Under the pieces are notes generated by a model, which did no database searches, was not told the DNA's origin, and saw only the letters and a list, made by a program, of their open reading frames with translations. From Agriterribacter sp. (GTDB taxonomy: Bacteria > Bacteroidota > Bacteroidia > Chitinophagales > Chitinophagaceae), in the NCBI GenBank assembly GCA_051958655.1, contig JBQCFW010000114.1, positions 8,319 to 72,318 of the forward strand: a stretch of 64,000 bases of DNA, in the 5' to 3' direction. Below, in pieces: positions 12,282-55,805 of the stretch. A program made the position numbers and the translations under genes. Every line of letters begins with the position of its first letter. Position 1 is the stretch's first letter.

Positions 12282-13490
12282 TTGGCCCTGATGAGTGGAA
12301 AAGCTATACAGCAAGACATATTCGGCAGCTCAGGAATCTGTGTTCTTATTCCCACCTATAACAATGCCGCTACCATTGGGCAGGTAATTGAAGATGTAGC
12401 ACAATTTACCCGCAACATCATCGTAGTAAACGACGGGTCGACCGATGTTACCGACCAGGTTGTGACCGCTTTTCCTTTTGTAGCCTATGTAAGTTATACC
12501 AATAATAAGGGCAAGGGCTGGGCTTTAAGAACCGGTTTTAAAAAAGCGGTGGAACTGGGGTACAGGTATGCTATTACCATTGACTCAGACGGACAGCATT
12601 TTGCCAAAGACCTTCCCGTTTTCCTGGAGAAAATACAGCAGCAGCCCGACTCCATTATTATAGGCGCCCGCAATATGAACCAGGCCTCGGTGCCCGGTAA
12701 AAGCAGCTTCGGCAATAAGTTCTCTAATTTCTGGTTTAAGCTCGAAACCGGTATCGAGGCGCCGGATACGCAATCTGGTTACCGCCTGTACCCGGTAGCA
12801 GCATTAAGAAACATGCGATTCATTACCCGCAAATATGAATTCGAAATTGAGGTGCTGGTAAGGGCTGCCTGGAAGGGCATTAAAGTATTGTCTGTGCCCG
12901 TATCGGTATATTATGCGCCGAAGGAAGAAAGAATATCGCATTTCCGTCCGTTTAAAGATTTTACAAGAATCAGCATCTTAAATACTTTCCTGGTATTGAT
13001 CACTTTTTTATACATCAAACCCAGGAACTTTTTTCGCTCGCTTTTTCAAAAAGAAAAGTGGCGCTCCTTTTTTAAAGATCACTTATTGAGTGCGCATGAA
13101 CCCAATCATGTAAAAGCCCTGTCGGTTGCCTTTGGTGTGTTTATGGGCATTGTGCCTATATGGGGTTTTCAACTGGTTACGGCCATCTTTCTTTCCTTTT
13201 TACTCAAGTTGAATAAAGCCATTGTTATTATAGCGGCCAACATCAGCATACCACCCATGGTTCCGCTCATCATTTACACCAGTTACAAAACCGGCGCCAT
13301 ATGGATGCAAAATGGCGGGGGCGACCTGTTGTTTAGCGATGAACTTACATTTGAAAGTGTGCGAAATAATTTTCAGCAGTACCTGTATGGCAGCATTACC
13401 CTGGCTGTACTGGCGGCAATTGCAGGTGGACTGATAACCTGGTTGTTGCTGCTGCTGTTCCGGAAAAATGTAAAAACCGCAGTTAATTAA
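12282..13490 (+). CDS. GT2 glycosyltransferase fused to DUF2062 (flexirubin/aryl-polyene cluster type)
   Basis: VLIPTYNN, VVNDGSTD, TIDSDGQH, DTQSGYRLY; hydrophobic C-terminal DUF2062-like region. Confidence 0.88.
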   Translation: MALMSGKAIQQDIFGSSGICVLIPTYNNAATIGQVIEDVAQFTRNIIVVNDGSTDVTDQVVTAFPFVAYVSYTNNKGKGWALRTGFKKAVELGYRYAITIDSDGQHFAKDLPVFLEKIQQQPDSIIIGARNMNQASVPGKSSFGNKFSNFWFKLETGIEAPDTQSGYRLYPVAALRNMRFITRKYEFEIEVLVRAAWKGIKVLSVPVSVYYAPKEERISHFRPFKDFTRISILNTFLVLITFLYIKPRNFFRSLFQKEKWRSFFKDHLLSAHEPNHVKALSVAFGVFMGIVPIWGFQLVTAIFLSFLLKLNKAIVIIAANISIPPMVPLIIYTSYKTGAIWMQNGGGDLLFSDELTFESVRNNFQQYLYGSITLAVLAAIAGGLITWLLLLLFRKNVKTAVN

Positions 13491-13495
13491 AAAGC

Positions 13496-16400
13496 ATGGC
13501 GCGATTCTTTTCCGGCATATATCATTTTTTCAGGGGGAGAAGATGGCTGTTGTTTGCCCTGTTTTTCGGGTGCCTGGCGCTCACTGCTTTTTTTGCGTCA
13601 AGGCTCACGTTTGAAGAAGATATTTCCAAAATACTTCCCAAAGATGCCAGCGTGGCAAAGCTCAACGAAGTGTTCCGGCAATCGAAGTTCATGGACAAGC
13701 TGGTAGTAATGGTATCGTTGAAAGATTCAACCGCCAGCGAACCAGACAGTCTGGTGAATTTTGCCGATGAATTTACGAACGATATTGAACAAACGCTCGC
13801 CCCTTATATTAAGGAGCTTCATTACCGCGTGAGCGACGACATGACGCTGACCATGCTGAACATGGTGCAGGAACATTTGCCCATATACCTTACCCCACAG
13901 GACTATTCCACCATTGATAGTTTGATTGCGCCGGCGGCAGTAAAAGCTACTTTGCAGCAAAACCTGCAAACGCTCAGTTCGCCCGCCGGCTTTGGTTTAA
14001 AAGATTTTATCAGCAACGATCCTGTAGGCATTTCGTTCATTGCTCTAAAAAAATTGCAGCAGTTGCAATACGATGAAAACTTTGAGTTGTATGATAACTG
14101 CGTAATGACCCGCGACCAAAAAACACTGATCTTTTTTATTACGCCCGCTTATCCGCCCGATAATACCGGGAAAAATGAGCTGTTCCTCAAAGGGCTCGAC
14201 AGTGCCATTGTTGGGGCAACAGCTGCCCGCCCCTGGATAGACGCGGGTTATTTTGGTGCGACAGCGGTATCTGCCGGAAACGCAGCACAACTAGGTAAAG
14301 ACACCTTGTTTACGCAAGGCATTACCGTTGTATTCCTGGTGGTTTTTATAGGATTGTATTTCAGGCGGGTGGCAGCCCCGCTGCTGATTATGATACCGGT
14401 TGTATTTGGAGCGCTGTTTTCGCTAACGGTCATTTATTTTTTAAAAGGAAGCATATCCGTAATAGCCGTGGGTACCGGTTCGGTAATTCTTGGCATAGCC
14501 GTTAATTATTCGTTGCATGTTTTCAACCATTACCGGCATACACGCAGCATTGAAAAAGTAATTGATGATCTCGCTTTTCCGCTTACCCTGGGCGGCGTTA
14601 CCACTATCGGTGGTTTTTTCTGTCTCAATTTTGCCGCATCGGATATGCTGAAAGACCTGGGCACGTTTGCAGGTTTCAGTTTGATTGGAGCTTCTTTGTG
14701 TTCACTGATTTTTCTGCCGCATCTGATAAAACCTGCTAAAGCCACATCCGCCAATGTCAGTACACATCACACCTGGCTCGACAGGATGGCTTCTTTAAAA
14801 CCCGAGCACAACAAATACCTTATTGCTGCAATTGTTTTTATTACTGCCGGACTACTCTATTACGCAGGTAAAGTAGGCTTTGAAACAGACATGAACAACA
14901 TGAGCTATATGCCCGAAAAGCTCAAACAATCTGAGGCAAGATTAAACAAGATCAACGAAGCAGCATTGCAATCGGTATACATAGTAACCGAAGGCGAAAA
15001 CCTGGATGCAGCTTTAATGAACAATGAAAAGCTCACCAGCCAAATTGAAACGCTAAAAGAACGAGGTATTGTGAACCGCTATTCAGGTGTATCGGTATTA
15101 TTGCTTTCTGAGTCGCTGCAAAAACAAAGAATACAACAATGGCAACGGTATTGGACACCCGAAAAAAAGCAATTGCTGTTAACCGCACTGAATGAGGAGG
15201 GCAAACCACTGGGGTATAGTGCCAAAGCTTTTGACCGGTTTACAGCGGTGCTCAATAAACCTTATGGAATTGTTGATACAGCAGCAATGGCCGACATCAG
15301 GAAGGCCTTCCTGGATGATTACGTGAACGAACAACCGCACAAAGCATCGGTGGTATCATTGCTGAGAGTGTCGCCCGAAAACAAGGCTGCGATCTACGAA
15401 CAATTTAAGGATGAAGCTCAAACAACGGTGCTCGACCGGCAATACCTTACCCGCAAACTGGTAGCGCTTATTAATGTGGATTTTTCAAACATTGCGCTCA
15501 TCACTTCGTTGTTTGTATTTGCCATACTGTTAATCACCTATGGAAGAATTGAGTTAGCGCTCATGGCATTTTTACCCATGCTCATCAGTTGGATATGGAT
15601 ACTGGGCATTATGGGCTTGCTGGGCATTCAATTCAATATCATCAACATCATTGTTTCCACCCTTATTTTTGGTTTGGGCGACGATTACAGCATCTTCATA
15701 ATGGATGGCTTGCTGCAAGAATACAAAACCGGCAAAAAAAATCTGTCCTCCTTCAAGTCCTCTATCCTGTTATCAGCCGTTACAACCGTTGCTGGTTTGG
15801 GTGTGCTCATCTTTGCCAAACATCCGGCGTTGCAGTCAATAGCCGCGATCTCTGTCATTGGAATTTTGTGCGTGGTAATGATCTCGCAGGTTTGCATTCC
15901 CTTTTTGTTTGCACTGCTTATTAAAAACAGGACGGCAAAAAAGCTATTTCCGTGGACATTCTGGGGATGGCTGAGATCGATGTTTGCCAATGTATGGTTT
16001 ATCCTGGGCAGCATGGTATTGGTAGTGACGGGCGTGATACTCATTAAGCTCAATCCATTCAATAAAGAAAAAGGCAAGTACCTGTTTCATGTGCTGGTGT
16101 CTAAATTTTCATGGTCGCTCATTTATATAATGGGCAATGTTAAAAAAGAGATCATCAATCCGCATGGCGAAAACTTTTCAAAGCCTTCCATTATTATTGC
16201 CAATCATCAGTCGGGGCTCGACAATTTTTTGATGATGATGCTGTATCCCAAACTGATTTTGTTTACGAACGACAGGGTAAGAAATGCGCCCATTTCCGGC
16301 TTTGTGGTAAAAATGGCTGATTATTACTCCGCTTCGGGCGGCGTTGAAAACACGCTTGAATTGCTGGAAGAAAAAATAAAACGAGGTTACTCGATTGTTA

Positions 16401-22026: not shown

Positions 22027-23205
22027 ATGAAAGAAGTAGTAATTGTATCGGCTGTGCGCACGCCCATTGGCAGTTTTGGTGGCGCGTTAAAAAGTTTATC
22101 GGCAACGCAGTTGGGCGCTGCAGCAATAAAAGCTGCTGTTGCTAAAAGTGGTATTTCGGCGGCAATGGTGCAGGAAGTGCTGATGGGTTGCGTAATACAG
22201 GCCAATCTTGGACAGGCGCCTGCCAGGCAGGCTGCAAAATTTGCAGGTTTGCCTGACGAAGTAATTTGTACCACGGTAAACAAAGTATGCGCAAGTGGAA
22301 TGAAGGCTGTTGCCCAGGCCGCGCAAAGCATCCTGTTGGGTGACGCTGATATTATTGTTGCCGGCGGCATGGAAAGCATGAGCAATATTCCTTTTTATGC
22401 CGAAAATATGCGGTGGGGTAACAAGTACGGAAATACATTGCTGATTGATGGTTTGATAAGAGACGGATTGACCGATGTATACGACGGAAAAGCCATGGGA
22501 TTTGCTGCTGAATTATGCGCAAAAGATTGCGGTATTACCCGCGAGGAACAAGACGCTTTTGCCGTTGAAAGTTACAAGCGTTCGCAGGCTGCCTGGGAAA
22601 AAGGTTTGTTTGCGGAGGAAGTGATACCGGTAGAAATTCCGCAGAAAAAGGGAGATGCTGTGTTAGTAACCAGGGATGAAGAACCTTTTAATGTAAAGTT
22701 TGATAAGATAGCAACACTAAATCCTGCATTTGAAAAGAATGGAACAGTAACGGCAGCCAATGCTTCTACGCTCAACGACGGGGCAGCAGCGTTGGTAATT
22801 ATGAGTCGGGCAAAAGCAAACGAACTGGGGTTGAAACCAATTGCGAAGATCGTTTCTTATGCTGATGCTGAACAGGCGCCTGAATGGTTTACCACTACGC
22901 CGGCCCTGGCCGTTCCCAAAGCGGTAGCAAAGGCCGGACTCGCCATGACGGATATTGACTTTTGGGAAGTGAACGAAGCTTTTAGCGTGGTAGGAATTGA
23001 GAACAGCAGGCGAATGAAACTGAACCCTGCTGCTGTAAACGTGCATGGTGGGGCAGTAGCTTTAGGCCATCCGCTGGGTGCCAGTGGAGCACGCATATTG
23101 GTTACGCTTGTGCATGTGCTGAAAGCAAATAAGGCAAGGTTTGGTGCAGCCGGAATATGCAATGGTGGAGGCGGCGCCAGCGCCATGGTTATTGAAAATA
23201 TATGA
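22027..23205 (+). CDS. Acetyl-CoA C-acetyltransferase (thiolase)
   Basis: [33 protein letters not shown]. Confidence 0.95.
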
Positions 23206-23499
23206 GAATAAGGTGTAGGGTAGAAGGGGAAAGGTTTGGAGTTGGACGTTTATCGTTTGTTCATGCCTGAATGAGCGTGAGGTTTTGCATAAAGCAATAA
23301 AAGGCCAGGTTGAGTGGAAAGCTTTCTTCCTGTGTTATGTTAGGGATAAATAATCAGCTTTTTCTTTTCCGATATTAGGGTAAGAGAAAAAGCAACAGAA
23401 AATGAATAATTTTTTCCATGGTTTTTAAGGGATGTGAAAGTGCATATTGAAATATGCCTGATCATTTTCTGTTGCAATTCAGGTCAATGTTTTACGGAC

Positions 23500-23670
23500 G
23501 GTAAGTGGTAAAGCACTGTTATCTTCTAAAGGGTAAAGATTCGGTGGTGTTTTGTTGTTGGCTGCGTTGGTTTTCTAAAGGTTTCGGTTTACAGGTTTTT
23601 CACGGATTCGGTTTCAAAAACGGGCTTCAAAGGTTAAGGTTTTGGGATCGGGATATATTGGATTATTGAT
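23500..23670 (-). ncRNA. Candidate small RNA/leader element, copy A
   Basis: Promoter-like TTTCTTTG, then AATCCAATA..CGATCC, an AAACC-rich body and AACAGTGCTTTACC; homologous to 51600-51735; no ORF. Confidence 0.4.
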
Positions 23671-23904
23671 ACAAAGAAACGTTGATAAAATGTTTAAAAA
23701 AATAGGAGATTATACTTTTGCGGTGTAAATAAAACTTAGGAAATGATGTAAGAAGAATGCTACACGTTAGTAAGTTTACTATTAAACAGTTGTCGAAAGA
23801 GAAGGGAATTGAATATGTAATTTGCAAATTGTTGTATACAGCCTTGATTGATGGCGTGTTGGATAAATAAAGCGAAACAGTATTTTTACTAACTGTTGGT
23901 AAAA

Positions 23905-25035
23905 CTACGCTCCGGAGTATTCCCGGTTTTGCAAATGAAGAGGCATTGTTACTGTAATAGTGGTGCCTTGCCGCGGAGAACTTTTAATATCATATTTTCC
24001 CCCTAACATTTTTGTACGTTCCTTCATGCTGATTAATCCGAAGGTTCTTTTACTCAGCGTGTCCTGTTTAAAACCAACTCCATCGTCTTTGATTGAAAGT
24101 ATCAGTACTGTTGCCTGTTGCTGCAGGGTTAGCCAGATATTTTTGGCATTTGCATGGCGTGCTACATTGGTGAGCGATTCCTGCACTATCCTGAACAAGC
24201 TTATTTTTGCTGTATCTCCCAGCGGCGGGTCTATATTCAATCCGGATAAATAGGTGCGTATTCCCCACTTTTTTTCAAACTCCATTAATTGCCACTCTAT
24301 TGCAGCTACCACGCCCATATCGTCCAGTATGCTAGGCCGGAGCTCCGCAGATATTCTCCGTACAGATGTGATCGTTCCATTAATCATCTTCATCAATTCC
24401 GTTGTGGTGGATTTTAATGACTCATCAGCAATATCCAGCTTTTTTAAAAGCCAGGATATCTGCATTTTAATAACGCTCAACTGCTGACCTAATTCGTCGT
24501 GTACTTCCCGGGCAATATTCGCTCTTTCCTTTTCCCTTGCATTGTGCAGGTGCCTCCACAAAAGCCGCAGCTCCTCTGCTACGGAGCTGTTCTGCGAAAA
24601 TTTTTCCTGCCACTGCAGTTTTTCTTCATTCAGTGTTATCATTTCGGTAACGTCTTCCGCCTTACCTATAATCCAGGATATTTTCTTCTCGCTATTTTGC
24701 ACAGGAACGAACAATGTGCGCCAGAAGCGCTTTTCAAATGTTCCGTCGCTCCTGCCAATATCATATCTCATAATACCGGCTGTGTAGGATTCGCCCAATT
24801 CAATTGTTCGGTTAACAGCAGTCCTGATAAATTCAATGCTACTGGATGTGTCGTTGGGGTTGTCAGGAAATACTTCGTCCAGTCTTTTTCCAACAACGGC
24901 ATCGGGGTTAATGTCAACGACCTTTAGATAGGCATTGTTGAAAGCCACAACAGTAAGATCTGGCTTAAAAACAACGTAAGCGTCGGGAGTTGTTTCAAAC
25001 AGCGTTTTGAAATCATTGTGGGTCAGCACATGCAT
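23905..25035 (-). CDS. PAS-domain sensor histidine kinase (HisKA_3 type)
   Basis: N-terminal PAS; IAREVHDELGQ H-box; ESLTNVARHA, DDGVGF, TFGLISMKER. Confidence 0.9.
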   Translation of the reverse strand: MHVLTHNDFKTLFETTPDAYVVFKPDLTVVAFNNAYLKVVDINPDAVVGKRLDEVFPDNPNDTSSSIEFIRTAVNRTIELGESYTAGIMRYDIGRSDGTFEKRFWRTLFVPVQNSEKKISWIIGKAEDVTEMITLNEEKLQWQEKFSQNSSVAEELRLLWRHLHNAREKERANIAREVHDELGQQLSVIKMQISWLLKKLDIADESLKSTTTELMKMINGTITSVRRISAELRPSILDDMGVVAAIEWQLMEFEKKWGIRTYLSGLNIDPPLGDTAKISLFRIVQESLTNVARHANAKNIWLTLQQQATVLILSIKDDGVGFKQDTLSKRTFGLISMKERTKMLGGKYDIKSSPRQGTTITVTMPLHLQNREYSGA

Positions 25036-51398: not shown

Positions 51399-51599
51399 GT
51401 GTTTCACAAGTATAAGCCAACAAACTAAATATTGCTCAATAAATAAACCGGTTAGTACTGTAAGTTAAAAGAAACAATGGAATAGCAAAGCAGTTGCCGA
51501 ATGTTTTGTAGTAAATTATCTACATCATTGCTGTAATATTTTTTACGAATTAATAATATAATTGACTATGTTTTTAAAGCGATAAAGCCTTTTACTTTG

Positions 51600-51735
51600 T
51601 AGTAACAAATCCAATACCCCTCGATCCTTTTTCCTGTTTACCTCTGACAACACAACCTCTCTAACCAGTTTTACTTATTGAAAGATTATTGCTAAATAAT
51701 TCTAATACGACCCGAAACCAACTGTGCTTTACCTC
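51600..51735 (+). ncRNA. Candidate small RNA/leader element, copy B
   Basis: TTACTTTG, then AATCCAATA...CGATCC and AACTGTGCTTTACC; homologous to 23500-23670; no ORF. Confidence 0.4.
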
Positions 51736-52151
51736 GGAGCCCAAACACCGGGAAATAGAAGCTATCCTGTGAGATTCCTGATTCTCATTTGTTCAGATTT
51801 CTGTTTTCTGGTGTTTTTTTTAGTGGTGAGCCGTCAGCTATCAGCGGTTAGCTATGTTTGAAATTTATTGTTGATCGTTTGTAGTTCCAACGATAAACAT
51901 CAAATAAAAAACGCTAAACATCTCCATTCCAATCTTGTATACTGGCTTCTGCTTCTTCCGTCATTTCAACGAAGGAGAAAATGCCTTGTGCTTTTTTGCT
52001 TCTTATTTTTTGTTTCTTGGCTTTTTGTTTCATTAAATTGGAATTGTTTTTGGTATACATGCAAAGTATGACTCTGTTACAGGCTTTTTTGTTGTGGAGT
52101 CAATGCAATGTTGTGCCTTGCATAAGGCTATTGTTTACTTTAAGCACCACT

Positions 52152-55583: not shown

Positions 55584-55805
55584 GCGCGTATATTTAGTAA
55601 ACCTAAGACGGCGGCTCCGCTATAAAATTACATGCAAAGCCGGCAAATAAACAAATGTTTACTTTTTTGTAACAATTGCGCCAGAAAACCTGCAGTTGTC
55701 GTAAAATGCCCCCTTATTGTCGTTACCGCACACGGTTTGTTTAAAAAACAAGTCGGATGTTTGTGTAACAAAACCAATCAATAAAACCTAACAAAACTTA
55801 TTACG

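Follow-up and report, generated by a model that had tools for sequence, protein, structure and literature searches.

We propose that copy A, a complete minus-strand unit at about 23387-23759 of the window (the whole 64,000-nucleotide stretch of an Agriterribacter sp. contig that was analysed), very probably belongs, as a functional copy, to a genus-wide family of small RNA (sRNA) genes that are present in multiple copies and transcribed independently, and with equally high confidence we regard the family as one of co-regulated, trans-acting sRNA genes. Each predicted RNA (150-540 nt) is built of the 5' end AACAAAUCCAAU, an unstructured motif arm, a hairpin with the loop AACCGUCC and a terminator, and the RNAs probably regulate genes by binding either a protein or other RNAs. 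Around ten copies of the family occur per genome across the genus. Multicopy regulatory sRNAs are a known kind of regulator, and the architecture of the present family is unusual; the family has apparently not been described before. To our knowledge, Bacteroidota are without Hfq and CsrA and hardly use the Shine-Dalgarno interaction, and nearly all the examples of their post-transcriptional control that we know of come from gut Bacteroides. The family is real and statistically well supported, large and sharply defined, and it belongs to a soil and wastewater genus of the Chitinophagaceae, in a phylum where post-transcriptional control is poorly understood.

Copy A lies in a 700-bp gap that extends from the stop of a thiolase gene at 23205 to the stop of a histidine-kinase gene at 23905, and that the first-pass annotation had correctly described as gene-free. 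The two genes form a convergent pair, with the thiolase gene (22027-23205, plus strand) being convergent with copy A and the PAS-HisKA_3-HATPase histidine-kinase gene (23905-25035, minus strand) lying upstream of copy A on the same strand. The strings that had been quoted from the minus strand of 23500-23700, namely TTTTTAAA-N13-TTTCTTTGTATCAATAATCCAATATATCCCGATCC, six AAACC motifs, CAACAACAA and AACAGTGCTTTACC, are all present, and that interval is inside the unit but covers only its middle, the complete unit comprising a promoter block, the RNA and a long-stem intrinsic terminator. The predicted sRNA, of about 280 nt (23387-23667, minus strand), is bounded by the promoter box and the terminator T-run, and we infer that it starts near 23664-23667, about 5-8 nt past the -7 box. 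The claim that the conserved part holds no ATG-led open reading frame (ORF) is borne out, with the longest one in copy A having 1 aa in sense and 5 aa in antisense. Across the family units the median longest ATG-led ORF has 17 aa in sense and 24 aa in antisense, no conserved ORF was found on either strand, and a coding function of the RNAs was ruled out by this check on both strands. What had been read as a promoter-driven RNA is indeed a non-coding unit running from a promoter block to a hairpin with a T-run, and it shows the features by which an intergenic sRNA gene is generally recognized: a promoter, an intrinsic terminator, freedom from ORFs and conservation above that of the neutral flank.

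The promoter block of copy A, about 90 nt long (23668-23759, minus strand), is matched by the nhmmer profile with E=5.5e-21; in G011, the closest species, the orthologous block has 94-98% identity to it. From 68 distinct units of this and related genomes the consensus CGTAnnTTTCC..TGTAG..TGAC(A/T)AAACAAT.ATA..N7..CTATTTTTT-N16-gTTTCTTTG was obtained. Near-invariant in these units is a -33-like element, read as CTATTTTTTT at 23696-23705 of the minus strand, 16 nt upstream of the -7 box; the latter is the TAnnTTTG-like TTTCTTTG (23672-23679, minus strand), the core CTTTG of which is invariant in all the units. Sigma-A promoters of the Bacteroidota type carry TTTG at -33 and TAnnTTTG at -7, and it is to this type that the two elements of the family presumably belong. 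The elements further upstream look like sites for an activator. In our model the sigma-A-type -33/-7 core and the conserved upstream sites together would form the shared switch of all the copies. As this 90-nt promoter block is common to all members, a single regulator probably turns on all the copies jointly. The segment that follows the box, tGTAACAAAUCCAAU, is nearly invariant in the 68 units, the RNA 5' end AACAAAUCCAAU is invariant across the family, and this end is unpaired in the predicted folds of copy A and of the second copy in the window, copy B. The family units are presumably transcribed.

The first-pass annotation had supposed a multicopy family on the strength of two copies, and the supposition holds, since these are not an isolated pair: the promoter-block profile finds 18 sites at E<0.01 in the 6.6-Mb assembly. 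About 11 of the 18 are stand-alone units, with a strong hairpin and T-run 125-400 nt downstream and no ORF (C156:722, C79:3352, C42:1660, three in tandem on C89, C8:2785, C40:30945, C90:11487, C59:11321 and both copies of the window). The remaining, weaker sites are promoter-like blocks standing before protein genes. Those with E from 1e-6 to 3e-3 (C41:3988, C197:36848, C40:29489, C90:19753 and C76:10718) precede a GAF-HisKA_3 kinase, three small uncharacterized ORFs and a protein of 927 aa that has tandem repeats and, at its N-terminus, a signal-peptide-like segment. These protein genes may form a regulon that shares the sRNA promoter.

On C89 the three tandem units are about 390 nt apart (12626-13499, minus strand), the third of them being without the usual 3' domain, and the array is also found in the sister genome G011 (C134). 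This array, together with those at loci L054 and L048 of other genomes, suggests growth of the family through local duplication. Several species encode a diverged stand-alone receiver protein about 50 nt past a copy-A-type sRNA terminator (L066:5869-6261, also L011, L044, L042 and L012; PF00072 with E=2.5e-5, below the cut-off), and at C89:23600-23962 of the present genome a 120-aa receiver-like ORF lies behind a family promoter block of its own and a truncated sRNA-like leader. The stand-alone receiver protein may belong to the regulatory circuit. The neighbours of the C89 array and of copies A and B are heterogeneous, and in these neighbourhoods no gene of an RNA-binding protein adjoins the copies.

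Downstream of the 5' end, copy A has a G-poor arm (23541-23660, minus strand) with AUCC/AACC(UGAAAACC) repeats, which is predicted to be unstructured, being unpaired in the centroid fold. The arm contains about 10% G and the whole copy A RNA 11%, and the RNAs of the whole family have 11-15% G versus 22% in the genome. The arm units are of the form (R)AUCC/AACC, frequently as GAUCCUUUGAAAACC, and the spacing between successive motifs is mostly 6-9 nt (mode). The reiteration of AAACC that had been remarked in copy A is above chance, with six motifs in its body versus 2.06 in dinucleotide shuffles and with six reached in 5 of 2000 shuffles; the core motif of the family, however, is AUCC/WWCC at 6-9 nt spacing, with AAACC being a local variant in copy A. 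In 41 units ATCC occurs 308 times, whereas 88.7 are expected and the maximum over 200 shuffles is 111. Among the paralogs the number of motifs ranges from 3 to 17 and the RNA length from about 125 to 540 nt. In the orthologs of the more distant G008 and G015 the arm sequence has diverged, yet it is still G-poor and holds 7-14 WWCC motifs. The arm appears in these comparisons to behave as a motif array, in which the count varies, the spacing is regular and the sequence turns over while the motif density and the G-poverty are kept.

The RNA had been called weakly structured. This is true of the 5' two-thirds, which are predicted to be unstructured (in the single-sequence fold of copy A the first 120 nt are unpaired and the 3' domain is folded), but not of the 3' third, which is a conserved structured domain with covariation. 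The domain includes the hairpin P1 (CAGUG...CAUUG; 23485-23518, minus strand), whose loop ACCGUCC at 23496-23502 is conserved family-wide; in the family the P1 stem reads GCAAUGU/ACAUUGC, and UUUUAACCGUCCGUUUAAA is the conserved loop, with the loop motif AACCGUCC conserved across the family. Then follows the intrinsic terminator (23387-23475, minus strand), made of the closing stem GCAACAGAAAAUGA/UCAUUUUCUGUUGC and UUUUU (23387-23391), as found by RNAalifold, by the alignment to the covariance model described below and by the single-sequence fold. Between the strands of the copy A closing stem lie a variable hairpin and a C-rich unpaired stretch. Across the family two forms of terminator occur, one short and GC-rich (C156 type) and the other a long-range stem of 15 bp (copy-A type), the latter being the commonest across the genus; here a variable hairpin and the single strand AAUCCCCUUCAUAACCUUAAUC, which is conserved, lie inside the stem GCAACAGAAAAUGG/CCAUUUUCUGUUGC, with the U-run coming after it. 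The inner hairpin differs in sequence between species with its pairing kept.

A covariance model, as the first-pass annotation had proposed, was built from the 3' domain (R1); it scores 90.4 bits on copy A (23387-23540) and matches 43 sites in the fetched loci. By RNAalifold, the closing stem has 15 pairs, 5 of which show compensatory change, and in the R1 alignment 97.2% of its cells are paired, with 6 pairs changed on both sides. Over the whole R1 alignment 95.7% of the cells are paired, versus at most 57% when the partners are slid, and 7 pairs show compensatory change on both sides, a number reached by none of 500 shuffles, these covariation counts being taken from an alignment fitted to the R1 model itself, in which most stem pairs are invariant. 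The compensatory changes in the stems point to selection acting on an RNA.

The footprint of copy A was taken in 50-nt bins against its syntenic ortholog in G011. While the flanking genes, the thiolase gene among them, are about 90% identical, the promoter and RNA of copy A (23400-23749) are 94-98% identical and the segment upstream of them (23750-23899) 86-90%; the spacer beyond the terminator (23200-23399) falls to 59-69%, with gaps, so that the conservation ends at the terminator. In the orthologs of G008 and G015, with 69% identity overall, the promoter core, the 5' end, the P1 loop and the closing stem are kept. Across paralogs and species the most conserved segments of the RNA are the 5' end and the P1 loop.

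A search of related genomes, which had also been suggested, found the 20-nt 5' signature (up to 2 mismatches allowed) in 27 of 33 Agriterribacter genomes with 1-15 copies each, whereas the reversed control pattern gave one match in total. Four of the six genomes without the signature keep the 3' domain by R1 (G014, G016, G017 and G287). By BLAST, the family is present in 15 of 18 congeners, and the pattern scan finds it in the cultured A. humi YJ03, Terrimonas sp. NS-102 and Pollutibacter soli JS81. Among the 151 Chitinophagaceae genera sampled the family is multicopy in Agriterribacter only: outside the genus, nothing convincing came from R1 run on 200 Chitinophagaceae genomes or from the 5' pattern run on 250, the traces there being single matches with 2 mismatches and one match at E=7e-4. 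BLAST found the family in none of 12 genomes from other families of the order, and no viral contig matched it. One species, G018, has 12 sites of an expanded sub-family whose 5' signature is the variant CTTTGTGTAACAAACCCATT.

The comparison with Rfam, likewise suggested at the outset, brought no matching family in Rfam 15. The whole window at gathering thresholds gave no match, and only noise came from 23200-23950 at E up to 10 and, with E up to 1, from six core copies of three genomes, with scores of 13-29 bits that are far below the cut-offs. As to partner proteins, the first-pass annotation had stated that Bacteroidota lack Hfq and CsrA, and both are absent from this genome, the best PF17209 (Hfq) match having 12.7 bits and the best PF02599 (CsrA) match 13.8 bits versus the cut-off of 27 bits. 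The genome encodes five single-RRM (RRM_1) proteins, and none of their genes is on the same contig as an sRNA locus.

Of the systems described so far, FopS/GibS of Bacteroides thetaiotaomicron comes closest: it comprises 14 paralogous sRNAs, each with a conserved, unpaired seed at its 5' end (the R1/R1' sequence of FopS), which associate with the RRM protein RbpB and repress translation of susC-type mRNAs at the start codon, and their consensus structure has been deposited in Rfam (PMC11697453). Like the Agriterribacter family, it belongs to the same phylum, has many independently transcribed paralogs per genome, each of them having a conserved, unpaired 5' end and, after it, an intrinsic terminator, and resides in a host without Hfq and CsrA and with small RRM proteins. 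By contrast, the Agriterribacter RNAs are 2-5 times longer than FopS, they have the reiterated AUCC arm and the conserved two-helix 3' domain, and, unlike FopS, they share an extended promoter block of 90 nt and are confined to one genus of the Chitinophagaceae. No Rfam match connects the two, this comparison having been made through the Rfam 15 scans, and a susC-type target signal as of FopS was not found in the crude complementarity test at ORF starts. Another RNA-based system of the Bacteroidota, the RNA-guided transcription by dCas12f-sigmaE with its few susCD-proximal targets and hth-associated ncRNAs, was considered, and no link to the family was found (PMC13472631).

In anatomy, the family resembles CsrB/CsrC and RsmX/Y/Z of the Gammaproteobacteria, which are also paralogous, carry a short reiterated motif in variable number, have a body that turns over quickly with its motif density kept, and possess a dedicated upstream activating sequence and an intrinsic terminator. 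The motif of CsrB/RsmZ, however, is GGA in hairpin loops, while that of the family is AUCC/AACC in a G-poor unpaired arm; there is no homology, and the partner CsrA is absent from this genome. Similarly, CrcZ/CrcY of Pseudomonas are long (about 400 nt) and have about six reiterated A/C-rich single-stranded motifs. CrcZ/CrcY titrates Hfq/Crc and is transcribed from a two-component-dependent promoter. There, the motif is AANAANAA, the partner is Hfq/Crc, of which Hfq is absent in this genome, and the promoter is sigma-54-dependent, whereas the family promoter looks sigma-A-like; again there is no homology to the family.

Judging from the anatomy, we tentatively favour, at a little short of an even chance, the reading that a protein recognizing single-stranded RNA would be bound and titrated by the arm, which would serve it as a multivalent landing pad. 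The titration would be analogous to that by CsrB/RsmZ or CrcZ, with another motif and another partner, the first candidate for which would be one of the five RRM proteins. Such titration is favoured over seed pairing because the arm behaves like a motif array, and because a crude genome-wide test gave no excess of complementarity at translation-initiation regions. If the arm does titrate a protein, this would mean a new class of global RNA-binding regulator in the phylum. A further-reaching claim, that the family is the first CsrB/CrcZ-type protein-sequestering sRNA system in Bacteroidota, in which co-regulated paralogs titrate via AUCC a global protein that is neither CsrA nor Hfq, we consider improbable as it stands; here a KH protein or Rho would be other candidate partners, and the RNAs would be under the control of a dedicated promoter that responds to a signal, possibly relayed by the HisKA_3 kinases and receiver proteins that adjoin several copies.

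A serious rival, though less likely than not, is that the family is real but acts by base-pairing, with the 5' end AACAAAUCCAAU and/or the P1 loop AACCGUCC being the seeds for mRNAs and the repeated arm serving a chaperone or RNA stability. That the 5' end and the P1 loop are the RNA segments conserved best, and that the former is unpaired in the folds, is what would be expected of seeds; such strict conservation is seed-like as in FopS, and the titration model needs neither. FopS moreover provides a precedent in the phylum that is multicopy, has a 5' seed and has an RRM partner (PMC11697453). In the target test, duplex energies of four conserved elements were computed against positions -50..+30 of 4,900 crude ORF starts, and the complementarity was not above that of shuffled seeds or of inner-gene windows; for the 5' end, 42 starts reached -13 kcal/mol or better versus 62.9±26 for the shuffles, the test being a crude one with guessed ORF starts and duplex energy only, which a few specific targets could escape. 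Perfect 11-mer complements of the conserved elements are not in excess in the genome either. Besides lacking an enrichment at ORF starts, the base-pairing explanation leaves the reiterated, rapidly changing arm unexplained. It should be noted that protein titration and seed pairing are not mutually exclusive.

Since rut sites are C-rich, G-poor stretches of untranslated RNA with regularly spaced YC, the arm could also be thought of as a Rho-loading (rut-like) substrate, with the RNAs being Rho decoys or having their lengths set by Rho. With C being about twice G over 100-400 nt, with the regular spacing of CC, with YC every 6-9 nt and with no translation, the arm does have this look. We nevertheless hold it very unlikely, because every unit has a strong intrinsic terminator and the conserved 3' domain, which would be needless for a mere Rho substrate.

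Still less probable is that copy A is the 3' UTR of the upstream PAS-HisKA_3 kinase gene, or a cis-acting leader or attenuator. It is true that copy A shares the strand of the kinase gene and lies 240 nt past its stop, that no terminator is predicted between the two, and that the spacer there is 86-90% conserved; but copy A has the full promoter block that is common to about 10 other units in unrelated contexts, some convergent and some tandem, and the next downstream gene, that of the thiolase, is convergent with copy A, so that there is nothing for a leader to control. The notion of an element acting as DNA, be it a decayed MITE-like mobile element or an array of protein-binding or GATC methylation sites, fits the multiple and partly tandem copies (three units on C89) and the GATC within many motifs, but is the least credible of all, as the paralogs have diverged, the orthologs keep synteny and exceed the flanking genes in conservation, inspection by eye showed no terminal inverted repeats, viral contigs are without matches, the strand asymmetry is strong with a consistent promoter-to-terminator polarity, the compensatory stem changes point to selection at the RNA level, and the core motif is ATCC and not GATC.

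The shared promoter, the motif arm and the covarying 3' domain offer three experimental handles: the promoter motif can lead to the regulator and the regulon, the RNA can be used as bait for the partner protein, and the paralogs provide a natural variation in motif number.

For copy B, which had been taken as the second copy, the blocks are indeed shared: on the plus strand at 51.57-51.73 kb they occur in the same order as in copy A, with AACTGTGCTTTACC at 51720-51733. It is nevertheless a divergent member, the 3' end of which is not conserved in the sister species. Its promoter block (51512-51603, plus strand; nhmmer E=2.5e-19), which aligns with that of copy A and is 88-100% identical to G011, includes the -7 box TTACTTTG (51592-51599, plus strand), and the RNA part (51604-51822, plus strand) has the 5' end AACAAAUCCAAUA and the block AACUGUGCUUUACC (51720-51733). 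Against G011, the promoter and the 5' half are 82-100% identical, while in the 3' part (51750-51849) the ortholog has a 32-nt indel. The 3' hairpin and U-run of copy B are of a type of their own, unlike those of the family, and R1 gives no match on it. The copy is divergent from a PIF1/HTH_40 helicase gene.

Finally, we note some further observations. A REP-like dispersed repeat with CAGCTATCAGC occurs 167 times in the genome versus about 3 expected, with sites in the window at 51828-51860, 46467 and 61454; one copy of it abuts the copy B U-run, and there is a similar cluster past the unit at C40:30945. Convergent with copy B is a lysine-rich ORF of 48 aa (MKQKAKKQKIRSKKAQGIF...; 51914-52060, minus strand), which has 80-94% DNA identity in G011 and may be a small protein gene. 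At 55759-55778 the sequence GTTTGTGTAACAAAACCAAT matches the 5' signature of the family with 2 mismatches, and an identical variant is present in G011.
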